64,000 bases of DNA from Chiloscyllium plagiosum (Eukaryota). The position numbers and the translations under genes are program-made. The stretch lies in contig NC_057718.1 of assembly GCF_004010195.1 (NCBI RefSeq), forward strand, positions 83,588,624 to 83,652,623, given 5' to 3'. This document shows positions 6,385 through 63,674 of this stretch, one piece after another. Positions within the stretch are counted from its first letter, which is position 1. Every line of letters starts with the position of its first letter. The notes beneath the pieces are model-generated. The model had not been told where the DNA came from. It saw only the letters and a list, made by a program, of their open reading frames with translations, and ran no database searches.

Positions 6385-8770
6385 TAGAACATAGAACATA
6401 GAACAGTACAGCACAGTACAGGCCCTTCAACCCTCAATGTTGTGCTGACCTTTTATCTTACTCTAAGATCAAATTAACCTACATACCCTTCATTTTACTA
6501 TCATCCATGTACCTATCCAAGAGTCACTTAAATGTCCCTAATGTATCTGACTCGACTACCACTGCTGGCAGTGCATTCCATGCACACACCACTCTCTGTG
6601 TAAAGGATCTATCTCTGACATCTCCTCTCAACATTCCTCCAGTCACTTTAAAATTATCTCTTCCTGTAATAACCATTTCCGCCCTGGGAAAAGATCTCTG
6701 TCTCTCCACTCTATCTATGCCTCCCATCACCTTGTACAGCTCTATCCAGTCACCTCTCATCCTTCTTCACTCCAATGAGAAAAGCCCTAACTTCCTCAAC
6801 CTTTCTTCATAAGACATGCCCTCCAGTCCAGACAACATCCTGGTAAATCTCCTCTGCACCCTCTGTAAAACTTCCACATCCTTCCCATAGCGAGGTGACC
6901 AGAACTGAACACAATATTCCAAGTGTGATCTAATCAGGGCATTATAGAGCTGCAGCATAACCTCACGGCTCTTAAACGCAATGCCCTGCTAATGAAAGCC
7001 AATGCACCATACACCTTCTTAACAACTCTATCAACTTGGGTGACAACTTTGAGAGATCTATGGATGTGGATCCCAAGATCCCTTTGTTCCTTCACAGTGC
7101 CAAGAATCCTGCCCTTAACCCTGTAATCTGCATTCAAATTTGACCTTACAAAGTGAATCACTTCATAATTTTCTAGGTTGAACTCCATCTGTCACTTATC
7201 AGCCCAGCTCTGCATCCTGTCAATGTCCCATTGCACCTAAGACAGCCCTCCACACTATCCACAACTTGACCAACCTTTGAGTCATTGGCAAACTTACTAA
7301 CCCACCCTTCCACTTCCTCATTCATGTCATTTCTAAAAATCAGAAAGAACAGAGGTCCCAGAACAGATTCCTGTGGAACACCTCTGGTCACCAAGCTCCA
7401 GGCTGAATACTTTCCATTCACTACCACCCTCTATCTTCTATGAGCCAGCCAATTCTGTATCCAGACAGCCAAATTTACCTGTATCAATGCTTTCTGAATG
7501 AGCCTATCATGGGAACTGTATTGAACGCCTTGCTAAAATCTATATACACTACTTTTTATTAATTTAAAAAATATACTTTATTCATAAAATAATTTGATAG
7601 TCTGTACAGTTGGTCATGCTATACATACATAAACATTTACATACAGAGATCAGATTTTATCATTTGTATATACAGGTCTGTACATCTAACAATCATATGT
7701 CCATATATTTAGCTGAGGCGTCGGCAGAGCCCAAATCTATATACACCACATCCACTGCTCTGCTTTCATTAATCTGTTTTGTTACATCCTCAAAGAATCC
7801 AATAAGGCCTATGAGGCATGATCTACCTTTTACAAAGCCATGTTGACTACCTCTAATCAAACTATGCATTTTCAAATAATCATAAATCCTGTCTTTCAGA
7901 ATCCTCTCCAATAATTTATCCACCACCAATGTAAGCCTGACTGGTCTGTAATTCCTAGGGTTATCCCTATTCCCTTTCTTGAACAAGGAAATAACATTTG
8001 CTACTGTCCAATCATCTCGTACTATGCCAGTAGATAGTGAGGACGCAAATATCATCGCCAAAGGCATAGCAATCTCTTCCCTTGATTCACGTAGTAACTT
8101 TGGGTATATCCCATCTGGCCCAGGTGACTCATCCATCCTCGTGTTTTTCAAAATTTCAGCACATCCTCCTTCAAGCTGTTCAAGCATGTCAGCCTGTTTT
8201 ATGTTGTTCTCACAAACATCAAGGTCCCTCTCATTAGTGAATACTGAAGCAAATATTCATTAAGGACCCCCTCCACCTCCTCCGACTCCAGGCACAAGTT
8301 CCCTCCACTATCCATGATTGGCCCTACCCTCACTCTGGCCATCCACTTGTTCCTTATGTAACTGCAGAACACCTTGGGGTTTCCCTTAATCCAACCCACC
8401 CAGGTTTTTTCATGCCCCGTTCCAGCTCTCTTATGTCCATTTTTCAGTTCCTTCCTGGCTACCTTGTAACCATCTCGAGCCCTATCTGATCCTTGCTCCC
8501 TCAACCTTATGTAAGCCTCCTTCTTCCTCTTGATTAGATGTTCCACATCTCTAGTCGTCCAAGGTTCCTTCAATGTACCATCCCTTCCTTGCTTCAGTGG
8601 GAAAAACCTATCCAGCACTAACAGCAAGTGCTCCCTCCACATTTCTCTTCTGCATTTCTCTGAGAATATCTGTTTCCAATTTATACTTCACAGTTCCTGC
8701 CTAATAGCATTGCCAATTCCCTCTCCCCCAATTAAATACTTTCCCATACAGTCTGCTCCTATCCCTCTCC
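6385..8770 (-). mobile_element. CR1 LINE ORF2 (RT), decayed, nested in an older CR1
   Basis: SPGPDGIYPKLL, NYRPVRLT, QHGFVKGRSCL, GVPQESVLGP, SKFAND and [10 protein letters not shown] motifs; (AGAACAT)n tail at 6385-6405. Confidence 0.92.
7550..7732 (-). mobile_element. Tx1-like 3'UTR fragment inserted in the CR1 with a 14-bp TSD
   Basis: TSD AAATCTATATACAC at 7536-7549 and 7733-7746. Shares CTCAGCTAAA, AACTGTACAG and TATGAATAAAG with the 3'UTR at 55210-55400. Confidence 0.8.
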
Positions 8771-12090: not shown

Positions 12091-13248
12091 TTAAGAATCT
12101 ACATTTATAATCTGCAAATGTGAGCTATGATCTGATGGATTTCCATGTTTCACACACTTTTTTTGTGTATAAACGTGTGCCTCATGTGCCTTTGTGTGTA
12201 TGTGCGTGTGCCTTCAGATGAGCACACTTTTTCTCATGCCCCTCATTGTAAGTTGTTTCTGGACATTTAATAAACCTGCTTCTCCAAAAAACAACCTGCA
12301 TTTATATAGTGCTTTTCAATGCAGTAACACATTTGAAGACTCTTCACAAGTGTACAATCAGATAACAATTGACACTGAGGCAAAGAAGGAGGCATTAGGA
12401 TATGTGACAACATGTGTTATCACACTGGTAGGTTTAAGCAAAGCCTTAAAGGCAGGATGGAGAAACAGGAGTGTGGCCAGACAGCTCAGAGCCTGAACGG
12501 CAAGGCCTGAAACCAGAATAGGCAGCTTTTGAGCAGCCCAGGCCCGATGGGACTTTCAGGACAGGTCAAGCACAAAACATCCACATAAGACAAGGGCAGG
12601 CAAGGAGACTTGCCATGACAGTGAGGCTGGTTTGTGATTTGGAGTACAGCCGGTAGACTTGGGTTCCCACCATGACCATGTATGGAAAGAGGGATAGCCC
12701 TTGACACATCAGAATATGAATGCTGAGGGTAGCCCGAGCATCATCCATACATGACATGGGGGATCCAATTGGATGCCGTGGCCTTGACCTGGAAGAATGA
12801 TTGGCTGAGGGCCAAAGAACATTCTGGAAGGGTAAAGCAGGGAGGGATAAGAACAGAAACCTGGTGATAATTCCTTCAATGAAGACTGGGTCTGGATCGA
12901 AGCTCCGATCACCTGGGGGAGGAAGAAAGAAAGAAGACAACCAGGTGCAGGAGCAACCTTTGCCAAGTTCATCAGAGCCAGTTACAGCTTGGCCAAGTTC
13001 AACTGCACAGATCATATCTGGTGTAAGCCTGGTAAGCTAACAATAATTTAGATATGAATTGCAACAAAGACTTAACTGTATGATTGGTAGAGTAATTAAT
13101 ATAAGAATTGGAGTTTCATCATGAATGAGCAGAGGTTTAGATAATATTTGGTCAAAAGGCCCCTTTTTTGTCTTGTGTATTTTGTGCATGAAATTATGTT
13201 AAATTGCAAGTCAACTCTAACCCTTTTGTCTGCCTAACAAGTATAGTA

Positions 13249-14734
13249 GGAGAAGGTGAGGACTGAAGAATCTGAAGATCAGCATCGAGAGTGTGGCGCT
13301 GAAAAACACAGCAGGTCAGGCAGCATCCCAGTAGCAGGAGAATCAATGGTTCTGGCATAAGCCCTTCATCAGGCATGAGGCTTGTGGGCCGGGAGGCTGA
13401 GAGATAAATGGGAGGGGTTTGGGGCTGGGGGGAAGGTGGCTGGGAATGTGATAGGCAGATGAAGGTTGGGGAGAAGGTGGTAGGCCAGAGAGGAGAGTGG
13501 AGCGGACAGATGGGAAGGATGATGGACAGGCGCTGAGTTGGAAGGTTGGATCTGGGATAAGGTGGTGGGAGGGGAAATGGGGAGACTGATGAAATCCACA
13601 TTGATGACCTGGGGTTGGAGCATCCCAAGGTGGAAGGTGACCTGTTTTTCCTCCAGGCTTTGGGTGCTTAAGGCATGGCGATGGTGGAGGCCCAGGACCT
13701 GCAAGTCCTTGGTGGAGTGGGGCGGGGCTGTGGAGTTGGTTGGTGTGGGTGTCCCAGAGATGTTCTCTGAAACATCCTGCAAATTGGTGTCCTGTTTCCC
13801 CGATGTAGAGGAGACGATACTGGGTGCAATGGTTACAGTAGATAACATTTGTGGAAGTACAGGTAAATTTCTGCAGAAGGTTCCTTTGAGGCATTGTACA
13901 GAGGTGAGGGAGGGGGTGTGGCACAGGTTTTGCACTTCCTGCAGTGGCAGGGGAAGGTGCTGGGAGTGGGGAGTGGACTGATGGGGGTATGGATCTGACA
14001 AGGGAGTCACGGAGGGAGTGGTCTCTCCAAAACACTGATAGGGGTGGGGAGGGAAATGTATCCCCTTTGGTGGGGGTCTGTTTGTAGGTGGCAGAAGTGG
14101 CAGAGGATGATGCAATGTATATGGAGGTTAATGTGGTGGAAGGTGAGGACCGGGGGGGTTGTATCCTTGTTGCATTGGGAGGGGTGGATTTCAAGGGCGG
14201 AGTTGTGGCAAGTGGAGGATATGCACTGGAGGGCATTGTTGACCATGTGGGAGGGGAAATTGTGGTCTTTGAAGAAGGAGGCCATCTGGGATTTTTCTAT
14301 GGTGGAATTGATCCTCCTGGGAGCAGAGGCAGATGAATTGGGAATAAGGGATGGTGTTTTACAGGAGCCAGGGTGGGAGGAGGTGTAGTCCAGGTAGCTG
14401 TGGGTGTCGTTGGGTTTTGTTGTGGATATACATGGTTAGTCGTTCGCCCGAGATGGAGATGGAGAGGTCCAGGAAGGGGAGGGAGGTGTCTGAGATGGTC
14501 CAGGTGAATTTGAGGTTGGGGTGAAAGGTGTTAGTGAAGTTCATGAACTAATCCAACTCGTCGTGGGAGCATGAGGCAGCACCAATACAGTCATTGATGT
14601 AGTGGAGGAAAAGGTGGGCACCCTGGCCCACAAGCCTCATTCCTGATGAAGGGCTTATGCCCGAAACGTCGATTCTCCTGCTCCTTGGATGCTGCCTGAC
14701 CTGCTGTGTTTTTCCAGCACTACACTCTCTACTC
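13249..14734 (-). mobile_element. Penelope-like retroelement (RT C-terminus plus GIY-YIG), 5'-truncated with inverted pLTR
   Basis: LFLHYINDCIG (YIDD-like), FHPNLKFT, LPFLDLSI, and FTCTSTNVIYCNHC...LYIGETG..FREH (GIY-YIG). pLTR at 13250-13400 with an inverted copy at 14620-14730. Imperfect TSD ACAAGTATAGTA/ACAAATAGAGTA. Confidence 0.92.
14638..14675 (+). ncRNA. Minimal hammerhead ribozyme motif (PLE family A), intact core
   Basis: CTGATGA(14643-49)-A-GGGC-TTAT-GCCC-GAAA-C-GTC; predicted cleavage after 14670; stem I weak. Confidence 0.7.
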
Positions 14735-14949
14735 ACAAATAGAGTACCCCAGTGCTAGAAATTGATCGAAAAACCCAACAGAGGTTAGGAGGTTTAGGAA
14801 GGGAATTCAAGGACCTTAATAGCCGAGGTCATAGCAAAAATTGTGTGGATGCATTTTTAAAACATGATACTGTATTATCTTGATAATATTAGTAGAAATC
14901 TTTTCACCACTATATTTTTTAAAATGTTGTTTTACTTTAAAATAAAAGT

Positions 14950-15597: not shown

Positions 15598-15802
15598 AAT
15601 TTGGAGATGCCGGTGTTGGACTGGGGTGAACAAATTAAAAATCACACAACACCAGGTTATAATCCAATAGGTTAATTGGAAGCACACTAGCTTTCGAAGC
15701 ACCGCTCCTTCATCTATCACCTGATGAAGGAGCGTCACTCCGAAAGCTAGTGTGCTTCCAATTAAACCTGTTGGACTATAACCTAGTGTTGCGTGATTTT
15801 TA
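15598..15802. mobile_element. Palindromic non-autonomous PLE unit (family B)
   Basis: Inverted arms of about 75 bp; exact 12-bp TSD CCTATTTCTTAT at 15586-15597 and 15803-15814. Related copies at 24.1 and 44.0 kb. Confidence 0.85.
15718..15752 (+). ncRNA. Minimal hammerhead ribozyme motif (PLE family B), intact core
   Basis: CAC-CTGATGA-A-GGAG-CGTCA-CTCC-GAAAG-CTA^-GTG. Stem I CAC/GTG, stem II GGAG/CTCC, palindromic AGCT helix III; predicted cleavage after 15749. Confidence 0.75.
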
Positions 15803-24074: not shown

Positions 24075-24291
24075 TGATTTGGAGATGCTGATGTTGGACT
24101 GGGGTGTATAAAGTTAAAAATCACACAACACAAGGTAATAGTCCAACAGGTTTAATTGGAAGCACATTGGCTTTCGGAGCGCCGCTCCTTCATCAGGTGA
24201 CAACCACCTTTGAAGGAGCGGCGCTCCAAAAGCTAGTGCTTCCAGTTAAACCTGTTGGACTATAACCTGGTGTTGTGTGATTTTTAACTCT
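24075..24291. mobile_element. Palindromic PLE unit (family B) in intron 1
   Basis: Inverted arms, each with a mutated hammerhead. TSD GAAAAGACA/GAAAAGATA at 24066-24074 and 24292-24300. Confidence 0.85.
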
Positions 24292-24649
24292 GAAAAGATA
24301 CCAGTTTACAAGGTTCTGCAAACAGCAGTGATATAAATGACCGTGTTGGTGGTTGAGGGATTACTATTGGCCAGGATACAGCAAGATCTCCCATGTGCTT
24401 CTTCAAATAGTGCTATGTCAAATCTTACACCTAGCTGATCAGGCAGTTGCAGTTTTGGTTGAATATCGCAACCAAACAAAATACAACATTGACTGTGCAG
24501 CACTCTCGAAAGCCAGGATTAATTACTTAAATCCTGGAATGAAATTTGAAAGCATTACCTTCAGATTCAGAGCAAGGAAGTGCTACCACTGATATAAAGC
24601 TAACACCTGTATGACAGCATAATAATATAAAACAGCTGTTATTGTTGGA

Positions 24650-24802
24650 CATCTGAAACAAAAACAGAAATTGCTGAAGAAACTCAGCAGGTCTGGCAGC
24701 ATCTGTGGAGAGAAATCAGCTAACGTTTCAGATCTGATGGTCTTTATTCAGAACCTCTTCAGAGCTTCTGAAGAAGGGTCACTGGATTCAAAATGTTAAT
24801 CC
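24650..24802. mobile_element. PLE pLTR palindrome (family C), degenerate hammerhead
   Basis: CTGAAGA-A-GGGTC-ACTG-GATTC-AAAA-TGTT on +, with an inverted partner at 24720-24755. Confidence 0.65.
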
Positions 24803-26374
24803 CATCTTTACTATAACAGTTCATTCTCTGATGTTTGAGAAACACAATTAAATAAATTGATGTCATATTTTAGGATTTTATGTGACTGATTTACACTATC
24901 ATTTCACTTAGTGGCCTTACATGAGCTAAAACAATTTCAAATTATTTCTGAAGAAGTGCAGATGATTCAGAGTTCAATACAATTGACCCTGAATTGCCAT
25001 TTAGTTATTGAAATTAGAATTATGCCTCTATGGAAATTGTCAACAAAAATCAAGCTGGTGAAATAAGGCATAGAGTTAAGATATAATTGGGGGAAGATTG
25101 TCCAAGTCTTATCAGCAGTGGCCAAAGCTAATCCTTTAATCCTTGTCCACATCTCAGCCTTTACATGCGCTTAACATGATCTGGTAATGTTGAATGCTAA
25201 CATGCTGCCAGAAGTGCAAGGTATTCCATTCCTCACTATAGACTCCTCAACTTTAAATTTATGTTGTGCTTTTAAGTCTTACTCCAGAGGCCAGTGCTGT
25301 GTTGAGGGAATGCTGCTCTATCAAAGGTGCCATAGCTGAGTTGTGAAACTGAAATCCCACCTGCCCTCTAAGGAGGATGTAAAATATCCCACAATACTAG
25401 TCAACAAAAGTAAGTGTGTTGCCCAATCTCCAGGTCAGTAATCACTAGATTAGTTCCTGGGATGAAAGTGTTTTCCTTTGATTTGAGAGGCTGAGTAAAT
25501 TGAGCTGATATGTTATGGAGTTTAGAAGAATGAGGGATGATCACAATGAAAAATAGAAGGTTCTGAAGCAGCTTGTCAGAGTAGACACTGAGGTTGCTTC
25601 TGCCACCTGGAGAATGTAAAACATGAGGTGACAGTATTAAAGTAAGGGGGTGATCATTTAGGATTGAGATGTGGAGGAATTTCTTCTCACAATGGGTTGT
25701 GAATTTTTGGGATTTCCTGCTGGAGAAGTTTGTGAATGGTCCATCATTAAATATATTTGAAGCTGAGGTGATCAGAATTTGGTCACTCCAGGAACCAAGG
25801 AATGTGATGAACTGATGGAAATTCAACTGATGGTTGAGCCAGAGGACCCGCTGTGTTCTTCTTGAATGGCAGAGTAGTCTTTAGGGGTCACATGGTGTAC
25901 TCCTGCTCCTATTTCTTATGTCCTTGCGTATTTATCCCTCAACCTATATTCATCCCTCAACTAGCACCACAAATTGACAACAGCTTTTTCTGACACGAAT
26001 GTCTGCATTTCAAAAAGTACTTAAGGTTGTGAAGTCCCGAAACAACACAAACAAAACTTGCGTTCATACACCAGTTTTAACATACTAAATATCTAAGACT
26101 TCTGCATAAAACAATATTTAACACAAAGCAATGTAAGGAGATGTAGAACAGCTGTCTGAAAGATTGATCAAAATATTTGGATTCAAGAAGGAGAGATAAA
26201 AAGAAAAGCAGAGTTGTTTAAGGACACAGTTCCACAACTTAGAGCTTTGGCATTGGAAGCACAGCTACCACTAGTGGAGAGATGCCAAAGAATTTGAGGA
26301 ATGTAGCTGCATTGTAGGGTTGTGGAGCTGGAGGAGGTTACAAAGATAGAGAGAAGTAAACTGTGTCTCTCATT

Positions 26375-26784: not shown

Positions 26785-29700
26785 GATGCCATTTAATTCT
26801 TCCCACCAAGGTCCAGGAAGATCGGATTTAACTTGGTGCAGAACCTTCTCCCCAGTAGCAACTTTGGTGGAGCTATGCCATGAAGGGGTGTCCGATAATC
26901 AAACAGGAACCGGGACAGTTAGGTATCTAGTGAAGCTGTAGGCTGTTTCTTTAAGCCTGCCTTCACAGTTTGAATGGCTTTTTCCACCAGTCCATTGGAC
27001 GGTGGATGGTTTGGAGCTGTCCTTTTATGCCAAATGCCATTCAACTTTACGAAATACTAGAATTCCCTGCGGGTAAATGATATCTTGTTGTCTGTGACCA
27101 ACACTTTCAGGAGCCCATGTATTGCAAAATATTCTTGCAAGTTTTGTATCATTGTCCATGTGTTTGGCTATGTGCATCCAATGCTTTGAGTGGTCTCCAC
27201 AATGACTAAGAATATTGACCCCATGAAAGGATCTGCGTAGTTGCGGTGTAACTGAGTCCAGGATTTCCCCCACCATTCCCACAATTGTGGGGGAGCTGCT
27301 GGGGTGATTTTAGTCCTCATTGGCATTCTGGGCACTGCCCACAAATGTGGCTAGGTCTGCATCCTGTCCTGGCCACCAGACATAACTTCTCACCAACATT
27401 TTCATTTTTGAAACCCTTGGATGACCCTGGTAGAGTTCAACCAGTGTCTAGTGGTGACCTTTGCTCAGGACAATCGCCCTTGCTTCCTATAATAAAATGT
27501 CAGCCTCTGTGGTGATCTGGTCTGGCCTAGTCCAAAAAGGTTTCAGTTCTGACTGTGATGGCCCTTTTTTTTCTTCCATCACCACCAACTGTTTTAGTTT
27601 TGCTAGCACCAGATCTTTGTGTCCACAGTCTGATATTGTCAGCAGTGACTGGAAAGGTGTCCAGTAAGTTTAAAATCAGAAAGGACTCTTCCTGCAGTGG
27701 CTCCATTGGTGGAGTATCTTTCAGCAGGAGGCAGCTCAAGGCATCTGCATTTGCTACAAGTCCTCCTGGATGGTGTTCCAACTTGTAATTGTATGCACCA
27801 TTGAATTCGACCTGAAGCTAATGAGCGGCATGGTCTTGTCCTCTTTGAGCAGCCCTAGCAGATGTTTGTGGTCCGTTACTATTACAAATTTATGTCCGTA
27901 AAGGTATTGGTGGAACTTTTCTCACACCAAAGATGACCATCAAACATTCCTTCTCTATTGATATTTGCATCGGCCGAAGTCCGGGAAGCATACACTACTG
28001 GGCATTCCACTCCATTGGGCCATCTGTGAGCCAATGCTACCCCAATACCATACAGGGAGGAATCAATCATGCTTGGGATCAAAGTGTGCCAACTGATGAT
28101 GATGATGATAGCTGCTTCTTCACTTCCCTAGAGGCTCTTTTAGCTACGAGACCATTCCCAAGGCTAACCCTTTTTCAGTGGCAGATTTAAGGGTGCCAAG
28201 ATAGATGCCAGGTTATGTACGAACTTTACATAGTAATTCACCAACCTAAGGGAAGACTTAAGCTAAGACATGGGAAGTTGGGGCACATATCGATTGCCCG
28301 CAACAGTTCAGTCTTGTTGACTCTGTAGCCGAACATTCACTTGGAGTGCCTGGAACACACATTTTTCCCTTCTGAGGTATATGCCCACCATGGAAAAATG
28401 TGTAAGGACTATGTCCAAGTTCTCCAAGTGCTGTTTATTGGTCTTCCCTATTATTAGCATGTAACCCAGATAAATGGTCGGATTTCTCCAGTTTCCTCAT
28501 TTCCCCTCCCCCCAGTCCCAACCCTCAGTCCCAACCCTCAAACTCAGCACCACCTTCCTAACCTGCAATCTTCTTCCTGACCTTTTCCAGCAACACATTT
28601 TCAGCTCTGATCTCCAGCATCTGCAGTCCTCACTTTCTCCTAAATGGTCATCTGGGGTTGACTTTGTAAAATGTTCTCCGTTGTCTGCTGAAAGATGGCA
28701 CAGACTGATGATACCCCAACTGGCAGTTCTTGTATATTGGTACAAACCCTTATGAGTATTAACTGTAATATACTCCTGGGAATCCTCATCTAAGTGCAAT
28801 TGCAGGTACGCATGGCTCATGTCCAGTTTTGTGAAAGACAGCCTCCCCTTGCCAGCTTTGCATTTAAGTCCTCTATGTGACAGACTGGTTATTTATCCAG
28901 CTGCAAGAAGCAGTTTCCCAAACCTATCGGGCTTCACAATCAGTACATTCTGCAAACTGTACTGGTTTGATGATTCCTTTGTTTTTCAGCCTCTTGCTTT
29001 CTGCCTCTACTTCTGCATATAAGACAAATGGCACTGGGCAGACCTTGCAGAGTTGTGGAATTGCTTCCTGGTCAACATGCAAGGTGGCCTTGGCTCCTTT
29101 GATCGTCCTTGGACCTTTCTGAAAAACTTGCAGGTATTTAATTAGGGCTTCAGTCAGGCAACCACTTTCTAATTGAAATATGTTGAGCGAATCAATTTGA
29201 ATCTTCCTCAACTAATTTCACCCCATTAAGCTTGGGCCCGAGCCTTTTACTACAATCAGTGGTAACTGAACCAACTGTTCTCATGTGAGACTGGAACCGA
29301 AGTTGTAGCCTTAATCTGTAAAGATTCCCCAGTATAGGTTCTCAGTCATTCAGTCTATTAAGTTACACAAACTTAAGAATTGGAGTCCAGAGCGAATTTT
29401 GTTAAAGACAGGGTCTATAATCACTGATACAGCTGCATCGGTATCACCCTCCATTAGAACCAGGTGACCATTAACCAGACAGTTATATTGATTGGTTCTG
29501 ATTTGGATGTTGCTAAACAATCTAACTGTTCCAAAGCAGATGTAGATGAGTTTTACAGGATGTGCATTCTCCTGAATACTGGCCTATGAAGTTGCTGATT
29601 CAACTCAGGCCTATGGGACCTTTTTGCTGTCTCGAGTCCACACACTGGCAGCAACTACAATGGCTTGCAGGGCCAGTTCCTGAAGAAAATGTTAAGTATT

Positions 29701-30560: not shown

Positions 30561-31590
30561 TTTTTTTTCTTTTCTTTTTTTTAAATAAACAGAACCTCTG
30601 ACACTCCTGTTTTAATTTTCTGTTTTACCCCCACACTACCGCCTAACTGCGGTAGTGCTTATTTTTCCCCAGCACCCATGTTGTGTGTGTGTGTGTGTGT
30701 GCAGGTGTGAGACACAGTGAAAAACACAAGGTGCACAAATCTTTATTCAAATTTCCACCACCAGAAAGAAAGGAAACACCCGAGTGGCCAGTGACAGGCA
30801 GTGCCCTTCTCATCAAAGGGCAATGCTGTGAGATTAAACAGTGAAGGGGAGGGCAGGGATTAAATCAAAATAGAGTTGGAGGGAGAAATAATGCACTCCA
30901 CTCCCTGTGGCGCTCACCTCTCCCTGAACAACTCCAGGGTGTCAGTGGACACTGCATGCTCCTTTTCCAGAGACACCCAAGCTCTAACGTAACCACGGAA
31001 GAGGGGCAGGCAGTCAGCCCTAATGACCCCCTCCACGGCCCGCTGTCTGTTTATGGCCAGTTTGGCCAGGGCACTCCTGTCTATTTTTGGTTTTTTTCTG
31101 AACCTCTGACGCTCCTTTTTTTTTTCTTTTTTTTTCCATTTTTCTAACCCCACACTACCGCCTAACTGCGGTAGTGCTTATTTTTTCCCCAGCACCCATG
31201 TTGTGTGTGTGCAGGTGTGAGACACAGTGAGAGACACAAGGTGCACGAATCTTTATTCGGTTTCCACCACCAGGAAAATAGGAAACACCCGAGTGACCAG
31301 TGACAAGCACTGCCCTTCACATCAAAGGGCAATGCTGTGTGATCAAACAGTAATGCTGTGTGATCAAACAGTGAAGGGGAGGGCAGGGATTAAATCAAAA
31401 TAGAGTTGGAGGGGGAAATAATGCACCCCACTCCCTGCGGCACTCACCTCTCCCTGAACAACTCCAGGGTGTTGGTGGAGACCGCGTGCTCCTTCTCCAA
31501 GGACACTCGGGCTCTAACGTAACCACGGAAGAGGGGCAGGCAGTCGGCCCTAAAGACCCTCTCCACGGCCTGCTGCCCGGACCTGTTTAT
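30561..31590 (-). mobile_element. Two tandem 5'-truncated 3' ends of a Tx1-like non-LTR element
   Basis: Near-identical units at about 30627-31070 and 31146-31590. ORF2 C-terminus KLAINRQRAVEG..FRGYVRAWVSLE, AATAAA, 9-bp hairpin and A-rich tails. Confidence 0.8.
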
Positions 31591-32340: not shown

Positions 32341-32811
32341 GATTTTACAAGTGAATGTTCTTTCTTTCATTATTTTAAACATGTTATTCTCATAAACCCA
32401 TCAATGATCAAAGAATGAATGGCTTTTGATACATGCATTTATGTATGTTGAGCACATCTTACTTGGTTGCATGTGGGATTTCAATGTTTTAGTAGTGTGG
32501 TTTGCATTGAAATAACATCTTTTCATATCAAAATGCCCCATATGCAAAATATTATTGTTCTTTAGATAAACATGCAACCTTTAGACAAACATTTTGAACA
32601 CATCACAATCCTACAAACAATAGTTGAAAAAAACCGTCAATTTATTTCATGGTGTGAGTTGATGAGGAAAATATCAGCTAAGAGACACAAAAACCTTTCT
32701 GTTTCTTCAGTTCGTATTGTAGGCTCTAATATCCATATGACTATGGGATCAGATAGAACCTTTGTTTATTATCCCATCTAATCAGTGACACCTTCAACAA
32801 AAAAACAAATT

Positions 32812-33690
32812 TAAAAATTGCTGAGAAAAAACACATATTGCCAAAGTTTTTGCCTTGCACTCAGCAGAACATTTCACAAGAACACCAATTCAAGTGGAAA
32901 ATCAACATTTGGAAAGCTAAGGTATCTTAAAGGTTTGAATAACATGTGAAGCTAGCTGTCTCACACTGCTACTGTGCAATAGCAACACAAATGGTGTTTA
33001 TCACTAACAGGATGCTGCCAACAAGTCAAAAAGGTGTTCTATCAACAATGTGTAATGTGTTTTATGAATTACAGTGCCAGTGTGGTGCCAAGTACGTAGG
33101 TAATGCATTACAAAGATCAGATCATACCAAACAGTATATTCCTTCAGCTGTGCACAAAGTACTGCCCATACCAAACGAGTCCCAATTTGCAAAACTAGTA
33201 ACACAGTGTCCAATTTGGGTTTTGATTCTGAAGTTGGACATCTGCTGGATAATCATGAGCATGCATGCAATATACTGACAACTAATTTCGGATTGTCAAT
33301 CTGGCCTGTGGTGTGGTGCACTTGTATGAACTGGAGCCACATATATTAATACAAAGAGTCCTGTACATTGCAAGGAGAAAGAACATATACACATACATTG
33401 CACCTATTTCAATTCAACAGAATAGGTGAGAGCCATTCACTGGTTTGTTTCTCCAGGTGATGTCTTGACCAATTTGAGTCAAGTTTAAAATTTAAACAAA
33501 GCCTGGCAGCTAACTGTCAATCAGCATTAATGAATGTATTCTACATGGTAACACCCCTACCAACCAATCAGTCCTGTATGACATATATTGTAAATGTTGG
33601 ATTTCCACTTAAATCGGTATTTTTGTGAAATGTCCTGATGTGTTCAAGACAAAAAGCTTTGACAAAACGTATCTTTGTCAGTAATATTCA
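32812..33690 (+). mobile_element. Penelope-like element (family D): GIY-YIG remnant with inverted pLTR
   Basis: CNVFYELQCQCGAKYVG (GIY-YIG-like). 32812-32910 is an inverted copy of 33592-33690. Degenerate hammerhead GTC-CTGATGT-GTTCAAGAC-AAAA-AGCTTT-GAC. Confidence 0.75.
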
Positions 33691-34599
33691 ATTTCTGTAT
33701 TATCAAATGATTAATTTAAAAATATACATACTTTTATCATATTGTCATCACTAATAATATTGTTGAGCCAGTCCCTTACAATGTCTGGTAAATCACAATA
33801 GTTCCACATCCCATCACACCCATAAGTTGTGCAATCTACTGAGAAAATTGAGACGGATGAGGGAATAAAAATCTGGAGCATTCTTCCCTGATCTTATTAA
33901 GTGAACAAAATTGGCCCTAGAAACCACTTTGGTTATAATTAATATTATACTTTTGCTGCCTTATAGTAGATTTAGGCGAAGAAAAGTGGGAGGAGCTTGA
34001 TTAGAGCACAGTAGACCATGGACTGGGTGTGTCAAAAGGCCCGTGTTTTATATCCTATGTAGTCCTAAGTACATGTGATTTCTTGTTGCCTTGAGAATAT
34101 CTTGATCTGACTGAGTACCTTGTGAAGCCACTTTTAAAAATTTGTTTTTGATATAGGGGTCACTGACTCGGCCAGCCTTTATTGCCCATCCTAATTGCAC
34201 TTGAGAAGGTGGTAATGAGCTGCCTTCCTGACCAGCTGCAGTCCTTGAGGCATAGGGTCACCTACAGCACTGTTAACAAGGGAGTTCCCAAAGTTGGACT
34301 AGCAGTGAGGAAACGGTGAAATGTTTTCAAGTCAGAATGGAGATTTGGGGATCAGTAAGAGTCAGTCATTTTGGTGTAGGACTTGAGTTGCATTATATAA
34401 GACCATATGACTAGCTAATAGCTTTAAGCTGATTGATTTCTTTTGGTTCTGGATGTTAAAAATTGAATTCCAATTCTCAAAGCATTATGATGGATTTTGA
34501 ATATGCATAATATTGTGCTGAAGTGTCACTGTAGCTGAATTCCTTATATCCTGACTGGAAATTAATTGAATCCTTAGATTTATGTTAGACATAAGAGTG

Positions 34600-42082: not shown

Positions 42083-42299
42083 GGAAGAGAAAGTGAGGAC
42101 TGCAGATGCTGGAGATCAGAGTCGAGAGTACGGTTCTGGAAAAGCACAACTGGTCAGGCAGCATCCGAGGAGCAGGAGAATCGGCTTTTCAGGCATAAAC
42201 CTGATTCATGATGAAGGGGTTATGCTCAAAACGTTGATTCTCCTGCTTCTTGGATGCTGCCTGACCTGCTGAGTATTTCCAGCACCACACTCCCGACTC
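42083..42299. mobile_element. Palindromic PLE unit (family A) in intron 3
   Basis: Inverted arms; exact 12-bp TSD TGATATAGGCAA at 42071-42082 and 42300-42311; hammerheads mutated. Confidence 0.85.
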
Positions 42300-42569
42300 T
42301 GATATAGGCAAAGATCTAAGGAGAGCTTTCTCTGTTCCTCTATACTCACCTGAAAAAGTAGATTGGATGACACTTTCAACAGTGTAGGACTCCCTGATTA
42401 CTGCATTGTTTAGTAGCTCCAGAGTTTGTCCACAAGTCCACGGAATAGGGCATTACATGTGTATCTAAGTGGTGAGAAAAAGAAAAAGAATTTTGCTAAG
42501 ACAGCAAAATCATCTCAAACCCCAAATAGTGGCATCAAAGGAAGGCAGCAGAGAGATTTTTAAATAAAA

Positions 42570-43718: not shown

Positions 43719-43999
43719 TCATAAATGCAACCTTTACACTGTAATATTTTCTGTCCTTGTCAGATGAAATGAATCAAGGCTTCCTCTTGAAGCTATTTTT
43801 ATTTAACTGAATGCGATTGTGTAATTTCAGCTTAATTGGAGGGGCAACACAACTTGTATGGAATGCACAACGTATTTGTTAAGTTAAAAATCTCAATTCA
43901 CAACAGCACTTTAGCAAGAAAAAAGGAGTGAATTACTGACATCCTCTTCCTGCAACATTTGAAGGTTTGAAATTTGCTTCTCTGCTTTAAGGAACATAG

Positions 44000-44383
44000 T
44001 TAAAACTCGTGCAACACCAAGTTATAGTCCAACAGATTTAATTGGAAGCACTAGCTTTTGGAGCGCTGCTCCTTCATCAGGTGGTTGTGAAGTACACAAT
44101 TGTAAGACACAGAATTTATAGCAAAAGTTTACATGTAATGTAACTGAAATTATACATTGAAAAATACCTTGGTCAACGTATTTTTCAATGTATAACTTCA
44201 GTTACATCACACTGTAAACTTTTGCAATAAATTCTGTGTCTTACAATTGTGTACTCCACAACCACCTCATGAAGAAGCAGAGCTCCGAAAGCTAGTGCTT
44301 CCAATTAAAACTGTTGGACTATAACCTGGTGTTGCGTGAGTTTTAAATTATGTACACCCCAGTCCAACACCGGCATCTCCAAA
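44000..44383. mobile_element. Long palindromic PLE unit (family B) in intron 3
   Basis: Inverted arms of about 170 bp around a short loop near 44170. TSD TTAAGGAACATAG/TTAAAGAACATAG. Confidence 0.88.
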
Positions 44384-45404
44384 TTAAAGAACATAGGAAT
44401 GGAGTAGACCACTTAACGTCTTAAACCTGTTCTGCCATTCAAAGTAGATTATGGTTGACATGACCTAACTCCATTTATCTCCTTTTGCCCATATTTCTTA
44501 ATACCCTTAGTTCAAAATATCTCTCCCAGATTTAAAGTTCACAATTTACTCCCCAGTCAACTGACATCTGAGGAAGAGTTACAAACTTCTACCAACGTTT
44601 TTTATGTGAAAGTGTTTCCTTGGAAATTCTTAGCTCTAAATTTCAGCTCTATATATCCTGGTCCTTGACTCTCCAACTAACAAAAGTACTTCTCTCTATC
44701 TACCTTAACTACACACTTGCAAAAAGAAAATCTTTGATCAATTTACCCCCTAGCCGTTGAAAGGAATACAAGTTTGGTTTGCTCTACTTTTGTAATTTAA
44801 CCTTTATTGTTCCGATAAATCTATACTGCTATTCCACACAGTACTCAATCAGTGGTTAACTAGGGCTTTCGAAAGCTTTAGCATAACTGTTGTAGTCCTC
44901 TAGATATAACCTTTTTGATTATTTTTCATAGCTGTCCATGATATTTTAACAATCTATGCATATGGACCTCTGAGTTATATTTGAACTTCTAAATTTCAAG
45001 TTTATTGCCATTTAGAAAGTGCCTTATTACAATCTTTTAAATTCAAAAATAGCTGGTCTCACATTTGTCTATCTGAAATTTAATTGCTACAGTTTTGCCT
45101 TCATTTCATTTATTTTGTTTATTTTAATTTATCTTATTTATGCTGTTACCTGCAGTATTTGCAATGCAAGCTGTTTTTGTGATAGATTTTTAAAACCTCT
45201 TTACTCATATTGTTCAATGGATTTTTTCTGAACCTTTTCTGACATGTGGGAGAAAGCTTTACATGTGTATGCATTTTATAAAATGATTTATTTAAAGTGA
45301 CCCTGGACATTTCACAGTACGCTCAAATTCCTGTCTAAATGCGTTGGCTTCAACCACTGAAACTAATTTGTCATATTCGCTGTCTTGTTGCACATTTCCT
45401 TTAG

Positions 45405-48625: not shown

Positions 48626-49771
48626 GACTCATGGCAATGATTTTGATTCCCAGATCAGTAACGGAGTGACTGGTGAATTCCAGGCTCCAACTTTTAAAAA
48701 TAGCTACCAGTACTCCTCATTTTCAGTCCCAAGGTCAGGTTGGATTAATTCATATTGGGTGACCCAAGAAGAGCTAAGAAGGCTGATGAATTCTGAGGTG
48801 AGCTGCCTCTGGTCTCCAGCGCCATATCTAATAATTAAACCAAAAGAATAAAATATTCTTCCAACCCTCACCCTTCTTGTCCCTTTTCACCCCCACACAC
48901 TCCATTTGCCCCATTGATGACAACCCCACCTCTTAAAAGTTTGACAGTTCTTTGACATCTTGACAGATCCGAGGGCACATTTGGGCGCAATCTTCTGTAC
49001 TGTTTGCAACCTAAAGATCAGCAGGCTGCTCACTCCCTTCTCTCTCAAAGGCTTCCTTTCAGGATACCTTATCTCTCCAAAGGAATACCCTGGTTAGATA
49101 TTTTAACCAAACCACAAAGTTCCGACCTGTTTTAGCAGCTCTAATGCTCACACTGCAGGTTCCAACAGAGATAACAACATCCAATTTCAGTGGAGTCAGC
49201 TGGTGGTTTAAATAGCCAATACTTCCACAAAATATGCATTATAAGTCCCAGCCTGACACCAGTCCTCCCCCATGAAAATGGGAAGTGCCATGCTCAGTGT
49301 TGGGTCTTGCTATTTATTCCACTTCTGATATTTTTGTAAATTATGAACCAACTGTATATAATGGCATATATTAAAACTCCAGTCCCCTCATAATCTCACA
49401 GACATACATAGATACAGTCAGGTAAATGAAACATGGGTGTTATGAATGGAGGGAAAACTGGAAAAGCAGTTCAGTTTCCTCTGTGCATCAGTTCCAGTGA
49501 GATAGTTCCTGTGCTGATCAGAACACTGCTTCTTTGTCTTCCTTCTCCAGATGTTATCACTGGTTTGCAGGCAGCATAGAGGGGCTGGTTCACACTTATG
49601 AAAGGTCCCTGACATTTTTCATTAAAAGTCATGGTTTACAGCAACTGCTGAAGGAAAATGAACTGCATTTTTTTCCCCATTTTAAAATTACATTTACTGC
49701 AGAGACCAGAGAGAGTCCTGAACTGGTGGAGATCTGATGGCTTCTCAGTATCTTGTTTACGGTCACAAGAT

Positions 49772-49907
49772 CCAAGGAACAGGAGAATCGACATTTCGGG
49801 CATAAGCCCGAAGAAGCCTGAAGAAGGGCTTATGCCCGAAACGTCGATTCTCCTGTTCCTTGGATGCTGCCTGACCTGCTGCGCTTTTCCAGCAACACAT
49901 TTTCAGC
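49772..49907. mobile_element. Palindromic PLE unit (family A) with intact + strand hammerhead core (49818-49845)
   Basis: CTGAAGA-A-GGGC-TTAT-GCCC-GAAAC-GTC. TSD TACGGTCACAAGAT/TACAGTCACAAGAT. Confidence 0.85.
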
Positions 49908-50514: not shown

Positions 50515-53500
50515 TCTTCATGAAGAAGATTTTGTTGGAGTGTTGCGGATTCTAAGCAGCAGACATCTACTGCCTGCAGGATTTCCCGAGTGCAAGGTAT
50601 ATTGATGTGACCTTCAGGAGCTTGATGCAGTGTGAGCACGTTTTAAGGGTATTTAAGGACAAAAAGAAAGGGAGCCTCTGTTCTCCATCATGTCAGCGGT
50701 GTGCTCCCTACACAGAGGAGTCAGGTTGTTACAATCTATATGTACAACTCCCACATCCCAGCAGCTGATGTCCTAACCTTCCTGGGAAGGTATGTGCAGG
50801 TGGAAGGAGACAGCACTGTCATTGTGGACTTCTTTGGAATCTGGACCAGCAAATGGCAGGTCAAGGTGACCCTGAAGGTGGATGCCAGTGGAAACATCCT
50901 CAACCCACTCCCCAGCTTTGCAGTTGGAGGGAGCAGGGGCTACCTGACGTATGCAGGGCAGCCTAAAGTGTGCCGAACCTGTGGGAGAGTTGGACACATG
51001 GCAGTGGACTGTAAGGTGATCATCTGCAGGAATTGCAAGCAGGAGGGTCACCTGACCAAGGACTGTAAAGAGTCAAAGAGCTGTAACCTGTGTGGGGAGG
51101 CGGGCCACATGTACAAGGCCTGCCCAAGACAGGTGTGAGGGATGCTGGGGCACTTACGCACAGATGGCTGGAGGTGGCAATGTGAGCTGTGGACCCCCAA
51201 AGATGAGCAAGGTACCACCAACAAGCAGGGGAATGGAGTCTGCCAGCACCCAGAAGGAAGGATGGGCTAGAGTGGAGCAGCTGGCATCCAGCGTGGAGGC
51301 ACAGCAGCTGAACCAAGCTCCAGTTGGACAGACGAAGGCAACGGAAGAAGAGAAAACCGAGGAAGCGGGGGGAGTGGATTCCGGTGAAAAACAGGAAAAG
51401 GAAAACCCGCCAGGCCTCTAAAGCCTCACAGCAAAGGGGGAAATGACAGCCGCATGGAGAGGAAATGGGCAGCTCCTCAGATGGTGAAGACGGTTGCAAG
51501 GAGGGTCATCACCAGCAGAAGAGGCAGAATGCCACTGGGGAAAAGGAGGGTAGTACCCCCCAACCGGGAAACGACAGACCTCCTAGGGAACTGGTAAAGC
51601 CCAGCCCCCACCTGGTGAGAACCAGGGGTTATCAATTGCCCCACAGCTCCAGGTAACTGGGAGCCACAATCATCTGGCAGCCCCACTGTCAGATGCTGAA
51701 CTGGACTCTGCGGACCCTGGTCTCAACCCGATGACACCAGAAAGGGAAAATGACCCCAGTGAGGAGCCAGACAGCTACCTCAGCCAACAGTTCACCTACA
51801 CCACAGGGATGCAGACAGCCACCCCAGAGACAGGACCATCGGTAAATTGACAATGGTAACCTGATAAACTGTAAAATGGGAGTTAAAATTGCCAGTATTA
51901 ATGTGCATAGTGTTAAATCTTCGATGCAATGTGTTTCTACGATGGCCTTCTGAGTCAACGTTAAAGCCAATGTCCTATTTCTGCGGGAGTGTGGGATTCC
52001 GCACCTCAGCAGCTACAGGAGATGGTCAAGTTTGTGTGCCCATAGGCCATCAGTTTGGTCAGGGTGGGGCAATGATAACCGTCCCTCTGGCCTGGGTGTC
52101 CTGCTGCAAGGGGACAACTTCACCATCTCTGAGGTTACAGAGGTGGTGGGCGGGTGCATCCTCGTCACTGATGTTACATACAGAAATGCTCCCCTGAGAC
52201 TAAGTAGCGTGTACACCCCAGCAGGTAAGAGTGAACAGCTGGCTGTTCTGCAGCAGCTTCCACTGTTGCTGGCTACGTCCAGGCCGGTCATTCTGGCCGG
52301 AGACTTCAACAGTATCATTGATGCAGATGGACGATCCGGCGGGGGGGTCAATAAACTGGATGCCACGCCCAAAGTCCTAGTGGAAATGGTCAAATTTGCC
52401 AAGTTGCACGACGTCTTCAGCACCCCTGCAGACGGAGCGCAGCGTAGATACACCTGGTCACGGGCAGACAGGTCTATCCGCTCAAGGATAGATTACCTGT
52501 TTGTGTCCCGAACGTTTTCGATCAGATCCACAGACGTCAAGCCGATGTTCTTCTCTGACCACTGCCCTCTGCTGGTCAACTGTCACCTACAGGGCAAGCA
52601 GTGAGTTGGTAAGGCAACGTGGAAGCTGAACACAAAGTTATTGACCCCAGGAAACATTGAGGAGCTCAAGAAGGATTTTGCAGGTTGGAGAACCATGAAA
52701 CCCCTCTTTGAGTCCCCAGCGGACTGGTGGGAAACATTTAAATGGAACATCAAGAGGTTCTTCATCCTCAAAGGTGTTCAGGAGGCGAGAGAGAGGTGGG
52801 GAAAACTGTCCCAGCTCCAGGAAAGTATGCAGAAGCTACTCCTGCTGCAGACGATGGGGGTCGATGTCACAGAGGACCTCAAGGAGGTGAAGGGCCAGCA
52901 AGCCTCGCTCTTTCCCTCAGAGGCCTCCAAGATAATCTGCCGGACCAGGATCCACTCGGTGGAGCAGGATGAGACGTGCTCACGTTTCTTTGTCCAGAAG
53001 ATGCACAAAGAGAGCTCCGTGCTCAGCAGCTTGAAGGAAGAAGATGGCTCGCTAACGTCATCTCAGGCTGATGTCATGAGGATCAGCAAATCCTTCTATG
53101 CCAGTCTGTATGACTCAAAACCAACTGACAGTGTGGCCTCCCACTCACTCCTGTCCTCTATCACGGAGGTCTTAGATGACAGAACACAGGAGAGGCTGGA
53201 CCAGCTGCTTTCTCTGGATGAGCTGACCAATGCCCTCGAGTCCTTCAAAAAGAATAAAACTCCCGGAAGCGATGGCTTACCGGTCGAGTTCTATTCCGCT
53301 CTGTGGGACTTGATTGGCCAGGACCTGCTGGAGGAGTATGTCAGTATGCTTCGGGCAGGTACCATGAGTGAATCCATGAGGAAAGGCATCATCACCCTCA
53401 TCTACAAGCGGAAGGGGGAGAGGAAGGAAATCAGAAATTGAAGACAAATCTCACTGCTAAATCTGGATTACAAAATCTTGTCAAAGGTCTTGCCAACTGA

Positions 53501-57078: not shown

Positions 57079-58135
57079 GCCCCTCAAAGATCAATAAGGT
57101 AGCCTGTGTGTGGAGCCACAGGAAATGGGGGAGATACTAAACAAGCATTTTGCATCAGTGTTTACTGTTGAGAAGGTCATGGAAGATATAGAGTGTGGGG
57201 AAATCGATGGTGATATCTTGAAAAATGTCCATATTACAGAAAATAAGATGCTGAATGTCCAAAAACGCATAAAGCTGGATAAACCTCCAGGACCTGATCA
57301 GGTGTACCCTAGACGTCTATGGAAAACTAGGGAAGTGATTGTATAGTCCCATGCTGAGATATTTGTATCATTGATAGTCACAGGTGAAGAACCAGAAGAC
57401 TGGAGATTGGCTAATGTGGTGCCACTATTTAAGGAAGGTGGTAAGGAAAAGCCAGGGAACAAGACAAGGTGAGCTTGACATCATTGGTGGGCATGCTGTT
57501 GGAGGGAATCCTGAGGAACAGGATTCGCTATTATTTGGAAAAGTGAGGACTGATTAGGGATAGTCAACATGGCTTTGTGCATGGGAAATCATGTCTCACT
57601 GACTTGATTGAGTTTTTTGAAGAATCCTATTGGAAGGATGTTGTGAAACTTGAAAGGTTCAGAAAAGATTTACAAAGATGTTGCCAGGGTTGGAGGATTT
57701 GAACTATAAGGAAAGGCTGAATAGGCTGGGGTTGTTTTCCCTGGAGCATCAGAGGCTGAGGGGTGACTTTATAGTGGTTTATAAAACTATGAGGGACATG
57801 GATGAGGTAAACAGACAAGGTCTTTTCCCTCGAGTGGGGGAGTCCAGAACTAGAGGGCATAGGTTTATGGTGAGAAGGGAAAGATGTAAAAGAGACCTAA
57901 TGGGCAACGTTTTCACACAGAGGGTGGTACGAGTATGGAATGAGCTGCCAGAGGAGGTGGTGGAGGCTGGTACAATTACAACATTTAAAAGGCATCTGGT
58001 TGTATATATGAATAGGAAGGGTTAGAGGATATGGGCCAAGTGCAGGCAAATGGGACTAGATTAAGTTGGGATGTCTGGTCAGCATGGACCAGTTGGACCG
58101 AAGGGTCTGTTTCCATGCTGTACATCTCTATGACT
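57079..58135 (+). mobile_element. CR1 ORF2 3' part (internal deletion near 57624)
   Basis: LNKHFASVFT, PGPDQVYPR and RLNRLGLFSLE motifs; tail. Confidence 0.9.
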
Positions 58136-58365
58136 ACCCTGATGGAGAATGGATGTATCATGGGATATTATGTCCATGGTAAAGAGGAGGTGCTTGGAGC
58201 CTGCAAACTGCAAATCTGAAACTGATGAAAAACTGTCAGAGCTCCTGCAGATGTAAATGGAAAAGGATTGGTCAAGTGAAGTGAAAATTGAGTCGAGAAA
58301 GGAAGAGATGAGCCCTGTGGGGCAGGAGTAGGTAGAAATGATGCATCTGCCCATGCAATTGTGTT
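58136..58365 (-). mobile_element. Penelope-like RT fragment
   Basis: GRCIISTYSCPTGLISSFLDSIF...LLFTMDI, similar to 63680-64000. Confidence 0.7.
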
Positions 58366-59410
58366 CATAGAGTCATAGAGATGTGCAGCATGGAAACAGA
58401 CCCTTCGGTCCAGCCTGTCCACTCCGACCAGATATCCCAACCCAATCTAGTCCCACCTGCCAGCACCGGACCCATATCCCTCCAAACCCTTCCTATTATT
58501 ATACCCATCCAAATGCCTCTTAAATGTTGTAATTGTACCAGCCTTCACCATATCCTCTGGCAGCTCATTCCATACTCGTACCACCGTCTGTGTGAAAAAG
58601 TTGCCCCTTAGATCTCTTTTATATCTTTCCCCTTTCACCCTAAACCTATGCCCTCTAGTTCTGGACTCCCCAACCCCAGGGAAAAGACTTTGCCTATTTA
58701 CCCTATTCATAAACCTGCACTCCAAGGTCTCTTTGTTCAGCAACACTCCATAGGATCTTACTATTAAGTGTATAAGTCCTGCTAAGATTTGCTTTCCCAA
58801 AATGCAGCATCTCCCATTTATGTGAATTAAACTCCATCTGCCACTTCTCAGCCTATTGGCCCATCTGGTCAAGATCCTGTTGTAATTTGAGGTAACCCTC
58901 TTCGCTGTCCACTATACCTCCAATTTTGGACTCATCTGCAACTTACTAACTGTATCACTTATGCTCGCATCCAAATCATATATGTAAATGACAAAAAGTA
59001 GAGGACGCAGTACCGATCCTTGTGGCACTCCACTGGTCACAGGCCTCCAGCCTGAAAAACAACCCTCCACCACCACCCTCTTCGACCTTTGAGCCAGTTC
59101 TGTATCCAAATGGCTAGTTCTCCCTGTATTCCGTGAGATCTATCCTTGCTAATCAGTCTCCCATGGGGAACCTTGTCGAACGCCTTACTGAAGTCCATAT
59201 AGATCACATCTACCGCTCTGCCCTTATCAATCATAGAACATAGAACATAGAAAAGTCCAGCACAGAACAGGCCCTTTGACCCATGATGTTGTGCCAAGGA
59301 TTATTCCTAACCTAAAATAAAACAACCTAACCTATGTACCCCTCAATTCACTGTTGTCCATGTGCATGTCCAGCAGTCGCTTAAGTGTCCCTCATGACTC
59401 TGCTTCCATC
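58366..59410 (-). mobile_element. Two CR1 3' fragments (58366-59232 and 59233-59410)
   Basis: YMDFSKAFDKVPH and SGVPQGSVL motifs; two separate tails. Confidence 0.88.
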
Positions 59411-60336: not shown

Positions 60337-60366
60337 TCTTTCGCCTTTTACTAAAGATTTCCGTGG
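60334..60366 (+). ncRNA. RNU5: U5 snRNA segment (stem Ic and loop 1), 5'-truncated, running into the gap
   Basis: AAATCTTTCGCCTTTTACTAAAGATTTCCGTGG matches the recalled vertebrate U5 sequence, including invariant loop 1 GCCUUUUAC. Confidence 0.8.
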
Positions 60367-60866: not shown

Positions 60867-61119
60867 GCATGAATTCCAAAAAGCTCGTACAGGTATTCAA
60901 TTTCAGCAAGTAATGGGGAAGGCAAATTGAATATTTACTCTTATTTCAAAGGACGTCAAGTATAAAAGTAGGGAAGTTTCGCTAAAACTATACAATGCGC
61001 TTGTTGGACCTCAGCTGGAATACTGTGAACAGATTTGGGACACTGATTTAAGGATATTGACACTTGAAGTAGCCAACAGAAGGCACACGAGGTTGATACC
61101 CCGTTTGAAAGTGTGAGGG

Positions 61120-63590: not shown

Positions 63591-63663
63591 ATACTATAGT
63601 TTCTCTGCAGCTTGTATAAGTCTTTTGCCTTTTACTAAAGACTTCTGTGGAGATAAACACTCC
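63591..63663 (+). pseudogene. RNU5: U5 snRNA variant or pseudogene, 5' end intact, lacking the Sm site and 3' stem-loop
   Basis: ATACTATAGTTTCTCTGCAGCTTGTATAAGTCTTTTGCCTTTTACTAAAGACTTCTGTGGAGATAAACAC aligns to roughly U5 nt 1-70. Confidence 0.8.
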
Positions 63664-63674
63664 ACAGAATAATC

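Follow-up and report, generated by a model that had tools for sequence, protein, structure and literature searches.

A dead Penelope-like element with a minimal hammerhead motif in the bamboo shark Chiloscyllium plagiosum

The stretch of Chiloscyllium plagiosum DNA analysed here (64,000 nucleotides, hereafter the window) carries several copies of a hammerhead-bearing repeat, which we call family A. To what kind of element does this repeat belong, and does its hammerhead matter to active elements, to their genomic copies or to neither? A preliminary description, made from the letters alone, had linked family A to an RT/GIY-YIG coding partner at 13249-14734 and had taken the recurrence of the motif in four families as support for its function. 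The identification proved right, as a Penelope-like element (PLE) with a minimal hammerhead in its pLTR ties family A to an RT/GIY-YIG partner. We are highly confident that 13249-14734 is a single 5'-truncated, endonuclease-positive (EN+) PLE insertion of the Neptune/Nematis type that was dead on arrival. This level of confidence applies to a joint reading, which comprises insertion as one unit, priming at two sites by analogy with a published element, and selection on the hammerhead at the level of master elements while genomic copies decay neutrally.

Coding remnant and ends of the element

The unit consists, in order, of a duplication, a tail, a sense pLTR, the 3' third of an ORF, an inverted pLTR arm without a tail, and the second copy of the duplication. 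Its features are as follows.

13237..13248, no strand: probable left target-site duplication, 12 bp, 10/12 identical to the right copy
13249..13280, minus strand: tail of about 32 nt, on the long (sense) arm only
13249..13393, minus strand: sense 3' pLTR end, comprising the tail and the stretch that the inverted arm mirrors
13341..13376, minus strand: decayed minimal hammerhead of the sense pLTR, with C11.1, A15.1, G16.2, C17 and one helix I base changed
13591..13882, minus strand: GIY-YIG endonuclease remnant, frameshifted, catalytic Arg changed to Cys, second His of CCHH deleted
13923..13955, minus strand: CX4CxxC Zn-finger-like linker, a mark of Neptune/Nematis
13956..14621, minus strand: RT remnant, motif 5 through thumb, with the 5' truncation just upstream of motif 5
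14622..14734, plus strand: inverted pLTR arm, without tail, 97/107 identical to the sense arm
14639..14674, plus strand: minimal type I hammerhead of the inverted arm, intact, in antisense orientation relative to the ORF
14735..14746, no strand: probable right target-site duplication

The decayed RT-GIY-YIG element of the preliminary description was confirmed in two ways. By tblastn, shark protein P0001 matched 14620-13541 of the minus strand in all three frames (E 6e-39, 5e-29, 9e-29 and 2e-8), covering the RT from motif 5 onwards and the endonuclease up to its end, and an EN profile built from 65 homologs matched 13882-13712 (iE 4e-15). Pfam returned no match on four single-frame pieces of the element. 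In a protein search with a single-frame piece, three of four matches were named Chiloscyllium punctatum (best E 5e-30), the closest named proteins to the coding remnant being those of bamboo shark, and the homologs found with this piece carry both RT and GIY-YIG matches. Family A thus shows an RT followed by a C-terminal GIY-YIG EN in one ORF, although in decayed and 5'-truncated form. The linker between the two domains is common to 63 of the 65 homologs with a GIY-YIG motif; a CX2-5CxxC linker at this place is described for Neptune and Nematis, whereas Penelope/Poseidon lack it (Craig et al. 2021, PMC8557442). Family A carries this mark, and, since it is common to Neptune and Nematis, the linker would not separate the two.

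Both enzymes of this copy are dead. The YxDD motif of the RT, present in 92 of 122 RT homologs, reads YIND here, and the remnant is interrupted by a stop at 14550-14548 and by frameshifts. At the catalytic Arg position of the EN, Arg is found in 61 of the 62 homologs showing the motif and Cys in our copy. The C, C and first H of CCHH are in place; the second H, deleted here, is found in 50 of the 122 homologs, the GIY-YIG motif in 65 of the 122.

The inverted pLTR ends held up as well, with 14622-14729 matching 13393-13287 at 89.8% identity. Measured from the first core base, C3, the sense arm extends 123 nt and the inverted arm 91 nt, and hence the 32-nt tail is present at one end only. In the window, long arms end at +122/+123 (family A) or +118 (family B), and short arms mostly at +79 to +94. 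The 12-bp duplication sits at the exact, homology-defined ends of the unit. With fixed ends and the same spacing, its 10/12 agreement was equalled at 1 of 60,878 window positions in a scan that included the element itself. Clear duplications of 9-15 bp were seen at 6 of 11 other insertions tested, while none that was convincing was found at 1645, 62603, 24768 or family D, and 24112 gave only 7/7. An EN+ PLE is expected to have direct or inverted pLTR ends, a tail of 30-40 bp and a target-site duplication, all of which are found at 13249-14734, the duplication being probable at 10/12.

One might instead regard the two arms as separate insertions that flank the coding remnant by accident, considering that the duplication contains two mismatches and is not significant when its ends are allowed to float (10/12 was reached by 32 of 297 random pairs). 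We hold this to be very improbable, as a 21-nt stretch upstream of the core is common to both arms, the inverted arm adjoins the RT truncation point and is short by exactly a tail-sized piece, the duplication lies at the exact ends, and the same layout recurs at 32808-33694 and in published elements. Under our preferred reading of a single insertion, and by analogy with the PLE of Anolis (Frangieh et al. 2024, PMC11167929), the protein of the element would have nicked the target and started reverse transcription at two neighbouring positions within the RNA. Priming at the tail end would have yielded the long arm, running back through the uncut hammerhead and the EN and stopping in the RT, while priming about 32 nt upstream would have yielded the short inverted arm, stopping 21 nt past the core. 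For head-to-head arms, an origin by self-priming on an antisense template has also been put forward (Arkhipova et al. 2013, PMC3846280), and the arm data here do not distinguish between these two routes.

Hammerhead motifs of family A and its relatives

The hammerhead core of the right pLTR, given in the preliminary description as CUGAUGA-A-GGGC-UUAU-GCCC-GAAAC-GUC^ with a palindromic ACGU helix III, reads exactly so at 14643-14670, including C17. It comprises the core (14643-14649), an extra A (14650), stem II (14651-14662), GAAA (14663-14666), the palindromic helix III (14666-14669) and C17 (14670), with the predicted cut at 14670/14671. While the sequence is intact as claimed, its orientation has to be added: the motif lies on the plus strand, antisense to the ORF and facing away from the coding remnant. 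The features that mark a minimal type I motif, namely an extra nucleotide before stem II, G10.1-C11.1 and a palindromic 15.2-16.2, are all present. A strict descriptor (core, stem II of at least 4 bp, palindromic helix III, UH) matched the window three times (14643, 15721 and 49818) and 200 dinucleotide shuffles once in total, so the intact motif at 14643-14670 is beyond chance. The bare CUGANGA..GAAA pattern was much weaker (15 matches versus 7.0 expected). An Rfam search of the window brought no hammerhead family to the gathering threshold and found only U5.

The sense pLTR core (13372-13345, minus strand), in turn, has lost C11.1, A15.1, G16.2 and C17, and the hammerhead copy that a sense transcript would carry is decayed. 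Five of the ten substitutions between the arms fall within the 36-nt hammerhead, all of them on the sense arm. Even in the intact copy, helix I is weak (three pairs plus a U-U mismatch). The best predicted monomer fold keeps stem II and extends it by pairing CUGAU with GUCG, which leaves the core buried (-11.4 kcal/mol, z -2.0), as compared to -5.8 kcal/mol for helix I and stem II alone. Dimer folding did not recover the ACGU pairing, the predicted best dimer fold being one without the ACGU helix.

Could the antisense hammerhead nevertheless be functional or co-opted, so that cleavage at 14670/14671 acts on a plus-strand transcript, of the host or from read-through? The core and stem II are unchanged in the inverted arm and the hammerhead substitutions are confined to the sense arm, as such a role would have it. 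However, assuming independent decay, all six CpG bases would still be intact in about 36-46% of the family depth, which makes the intact state common by chance. Moreover, helix I is weak and the monomer is predicted to misfold, a single minimal motif of S. mansoni is reported not to cleave (PMC4209133), eight of nine Xenopus dimers are reported to have failed to cleave (Li et al. 2026, bioRxiv 10.64898/2026.07.22.740005), and the 28 frames scanned yielded no identifiable host exon. We consider co-option the least probable of all readings discussed here, with next to no weight; that the right arm is intact is a matter of luck.

Further hammerhead-bearing copies in the window fall into family A and three other families, B, C and D:

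15599..15802, no strand: family B head-to-head stub with an intact core at 15721 (+), a tail and a 12/12 duplication
24077-24287 and 43994-44384: further family B copies
24640..24805, no strand: head-to-head stub of family C with two decayed cores and with downstream sequence related to that of family A
32808..33694, plus strand: family D, a second truncated PLE with inverted ends, both hammerhead cores decayed
32910-33392: thumb end and Poseidon-type GIY-YIG remnant of family D
42087..42303, no strand: family A head-to-head stub with a tail and a 14/15 duplication
49770..49904, no strand: family A head-to-head stub with a second intact core at 49818 (+) and a 13/14 duplication

The family A pLTR had been listed, without coding sequence, at 1645, 22693, 28480, 42083, 49772 and 62603. 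All six loci exist, but the hammerhead is not intact in most of them. Only one, 49818, passes the strict descriptor, and 28480 has no hammerhead owing to an internal deletion; position C3 is C in four and A in two of the six arms with homology covering it. The family B copy at 43994-44384 has long inverted arms that are 91% identical and reach 86 nt upstream of the core, a tail at one end and a 12/13 duplication.

The families at 24768 (C) and 33632 (D) do share the architecture claimed for them, in that both have inverted or head-to-head pLTRs and 33632 has a Poseidon-type coding remnant of its own, but their cores are not intact: G12 has changed to A at both 24768 and 33635, and A9 is also changed at 33635. 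Families A and C have common sequence downstream of the core (local score 44, equalled by 0 of 500 shuffles), and family C appears with U at position 17 in its decayed copies. The inner frame of family D found 27 proteins in a full HMMER search (best E 3e-8). A weak GIY-YIG match was present in 6 of 12 of these homologs scanned, one of them also with an RT, and the homolog P0138 carries RT and GIY-YIG. Because none of 34 motif-bearing homologs has the CX2-5CxxC linker, we assign family D to the Poseidon type. Pfam gave no match on single-frame pieces of family D, and a word-based search with its frame yielded no homolog among 15 candidates. Stem II of family D looks only about 2-3 bp long in these decayed copies.

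Within the window, a coding partner was found only for A (Neptune/Nematis type) and D (Poseidon type), and none for B and C. Stem II differs in sequence between families yet still pairs. To say that four PLE lineages kept the hammerhead independently is an overstatement, given the kinship of A and C and the decayed cores at 24768 and 33632. Retention is by descent, with at least two PLE clades carrying the motif at the same place.

Copy ends, family-wide variation and the role of the ribozyme

We measured 16 arms (10 of family A, 5 of B, 1 of D; family C, two reference arms and the family D sense arm were excluded). Eleven start between -14 and +9 of C3, two of these coinciding with slice edges set at palindrome centres, and none starts within 5 nt of the cut site at +28. 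Family-wide variation was assessed on contigs of four runs from three organisms, aligned to 14590-14760 with rough depth weights. Among the loose 5' ends listed, the best supported fall at 14635-14643 and peak at 14638-14640, where their flanks are unlike (agreement about 0.3). Among the opposite-strand joints listed, which have very low depth, one side lies at 14637-14644 in 12 of 12, and the other at 14671-14676 in 5 of 12 and at 14681-14695 in the rest. Since copy ends cluster at the front edge of the hammerhead and not at the cut site, the template is mostly uncut, as in the Anolis element. Some templates could have been cleaved, given that the second arm starts just after the cut site in the aforementioned 5 of 12 joints.

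The front edge, about 4 nt upstream of C3, might be where the PLE transcript begins. In that case the ribozyme would act as an uncut, protein-gated switch at the start of the mRNA, and internal priming in the 5' tail copy would copy only the first 120-130 nt of the RNA, thereby mass-producing solo and head-to-head stubs as well as the inverted arms of long copies. We put this forward tentatively and lean somewhat against it. The inverted arm of 13249-14734 starts at -21, outside the -14 to +9 peak, and the clustering may instead reflect RT stalling at structure or subfamily divergence upstream of helix I, which is seen at 14635 and 14638.

In two runs, 96,230 and 123,664 contigs aligned to the family A hammerhead repeat, numbers that do not represent copy number. 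The variant table covers 14655-14709 only, with the CUGAUGA half outside its reach. In this interval, all variants of at least 4% in stem II, GAAA, helix III and C17/G1.1 were of the CpG type in the four runs. CpG shares were lower in two runs (X1 and X3) that may be of RNA. In the two large runs, G12, the general base of the hammerhead (PMC6155905), showed the CpG change at depth shares of 12.6 and 16.6%, compared to 12.1 and 17.0% for its CpG partner C11.1. As these rates are the same, selection does not act at the level of copies, which decay neutrally; constraint acts on master elements instead. Non-CpG variants of at least 4% were found at three of four loop II positions, at the unpaired helix I position 14673, and downstream. 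The T>A change at 14673, at up to 18%, closes the U-U mismatch of helix I. Non-CpG variants of this frequency occupied 0 of 9 constrained and 11 of 37 free positions, a difference that is not significant (one-sided p 0.064).

A family consensus with CUGANGA, GAAA and NUH, on which the preliminary description had staked its claim, was indeed recovered. The GAAA/GUC half comes from the contigs and the full core is intact at 14643 and 49818, while the CUGAUGA half rests on the window copies (C3 in 4/6 arms). The covariation of stem II that it had likewise expected was not seen within families: 136 of 500 shuffles reached the score of family A and 500 of 500 that of family B, in small alignments (10 and 6 rows) with near-invariant stems and low power. 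No compensatory stem II change of at least 4% was found in the four runs. The argument from kept position to function therefore stands in part. That the motif has persisted in two PLE clades speaks for a role in active elements; it says nothing about the dead copy at 13249-14734, whose intact core is antisense.

What might this role be? Selection on active master elements would maintain the hammerhead, most likely for a weak self-cleavage, assisted by a dimer or by protein, that processes or limits the element's RNA. The motif would stay uncut while the RNA is copied and would decay neutrally in genomic copies, 13249-14734 included. That such assisted cleavage matters to active elements is suggested by the persistence of the motif across clades together with published assays. 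The alternative is that the hammerhead is a passenger or vestige without a needed catalytic role in PLEs, persisting as a protein-binding or start-codon-bearing hairpin or parasitising the element; it differs from our preferred explanation only in the role of the ribozyme. The ribozyme of PAc, the Poseidon of Anolis carolinensis, requires protein, insertion in vitro still takes place when it is mutated, and none of the RNA-seq reads terminates at the site (PMC11167929). In addition, Naiads thrive without a hammerhead and parasitism was raised by the authors describing them (PMC8557442), the arms in the window keep an uncut core, and decayed copies show the short stem II of family D and the apparent U17 of family C. 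Yet the catalytic boxes return across families with different stems and in two PLE clades, together with a palindromic helix III and a helix I that pairs, and the Anolis motif is able to cleave with the help of protein, with C3/G8 rescue (PMC11167929). On balance, we regard a mere passenger as unlikely, although it deserves far more weight than co-option of the antisense motif, and we favor assisted self-cleavage in active elements.

Relation to published systems and further features of the window

Hammerheads in pLTRs, inverted arms and tails have been published before (PMC4209133, PMC8557442, PMC3846280, PMC11167929), and the motif was reported in fish Xena, Poseidon and Neptune in 2014 (Cervera & De la Pena, PMC4209133). 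Class, motif and layout are thus in print, and 13249-14734 is an ordinary, well-formed example. As described in PMC4209133, the min-HHR of metazoan PLE pLTRs resembles the motifs of the window in its type I core, the extra nucleotide before stem II, G10.1-C11.1, the palindromic 15.2-16.2, many solo copies, several families per genome and opposite-strand pairs 100-700 bp apart. It differs in stem II, which has 7-8 bp in S. mansoni versus 4 bp in family A. Sharks are not named in the results and discussion of that paper or in two of its supplements. The EN+ PLE unit with an inverted 5' pLTR, a tail and a target-site duplication (as set out in PMC8557442 and PMC3846280) is the same unit as 13249-14734, which lacks a direct upstream pLTR and a partial tandem and otherwise does not deviate in substance.

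The closest mechanistic parallel is offered by PAc (PMC11167929), where the hammerhead also lies about 115 nt upstream of the element end. In family A, stem II and the end of the long arm lie 115 nt apart, and RT in PAc starts 111-118 nt after an ORF start at stem II. A tail between two RT start sites and uncut RNA as template are further likenesses. In contrast to PAc, family A has a Neptune/Nematis linker and is known here from its sequence. Non-LTR retrozymes (bioRxiv 10.64898/2026.07.22.740005) are non-coding, pLTR-derived hammerhead repeats related to PLEs and are reported in one chondrichthyan, but these form head-to-tail tandems. Self-comparison of the window found no such tandem of non-coding hammerhead units; its copies are solo or inverted (head-to-head), and 13249-14734 has coding sequence.

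A named description of the family A shark element was not found in the literature searched (Repbase, Dfam and most subscription journals lay outside its scope). The locus at 13249-14734 ties an abundant shark hammerhead repeat to a Neptune/Nematis-type PLE, just as 32808-33694 ties a second one to a Poseidon-type PLE. Ribozyme function is not demonstrated by 13249-14734, and a single dead copy adds little to the question that occupies the field, namely what PLE hammerheads do (PMC8557442, PMC11167929). A copy-rich genome could test their role statistically, through the position of cDNA ends relative to the cut site and a comparison of subfamily masters.

Several further features of the window are worth recording. 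At 63591-64000 (plus strand), the 5' part of a U5 snRNA (Rfam 51.8 bits) is followed directly, in the same orientation, by a decayed PLE RT fragment that begins near 63677. This is possibly a U5/PLE template-switch chimera, or else a PLE that landed in a U5 copy, with the 3' end beyond the window; the literature searched held no matching paper on a U5 snRNA/Penelope template-switch chimera. A second decayed PLE RT fragment, of the same protein family, lies at 58025-58372 (minus strand), between repeats that self-comparison suggests to be CR1/L2-like. A decayed RT/RNase H remnant of the LTR retrotransposon type lies at 27617-28262 (minus strand; tblastn with P0123, E 1e-36). The body of a LINE, with an ORF1 bearing zinc knuckles followed by an AP endonuclease, occupies 50647-53441 (plus strand), and further LINE pieces lie at 7696-8256 (RT) and 59385-60050 (esterase-type ORF1). 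An assembly gap of 500 N spans 60367-60866, and the ORFs listed around 60274-60945 are artefacts of this gap. Finally, 30592-31575 contains a direct repeat of about 480 bp with 83% identity.
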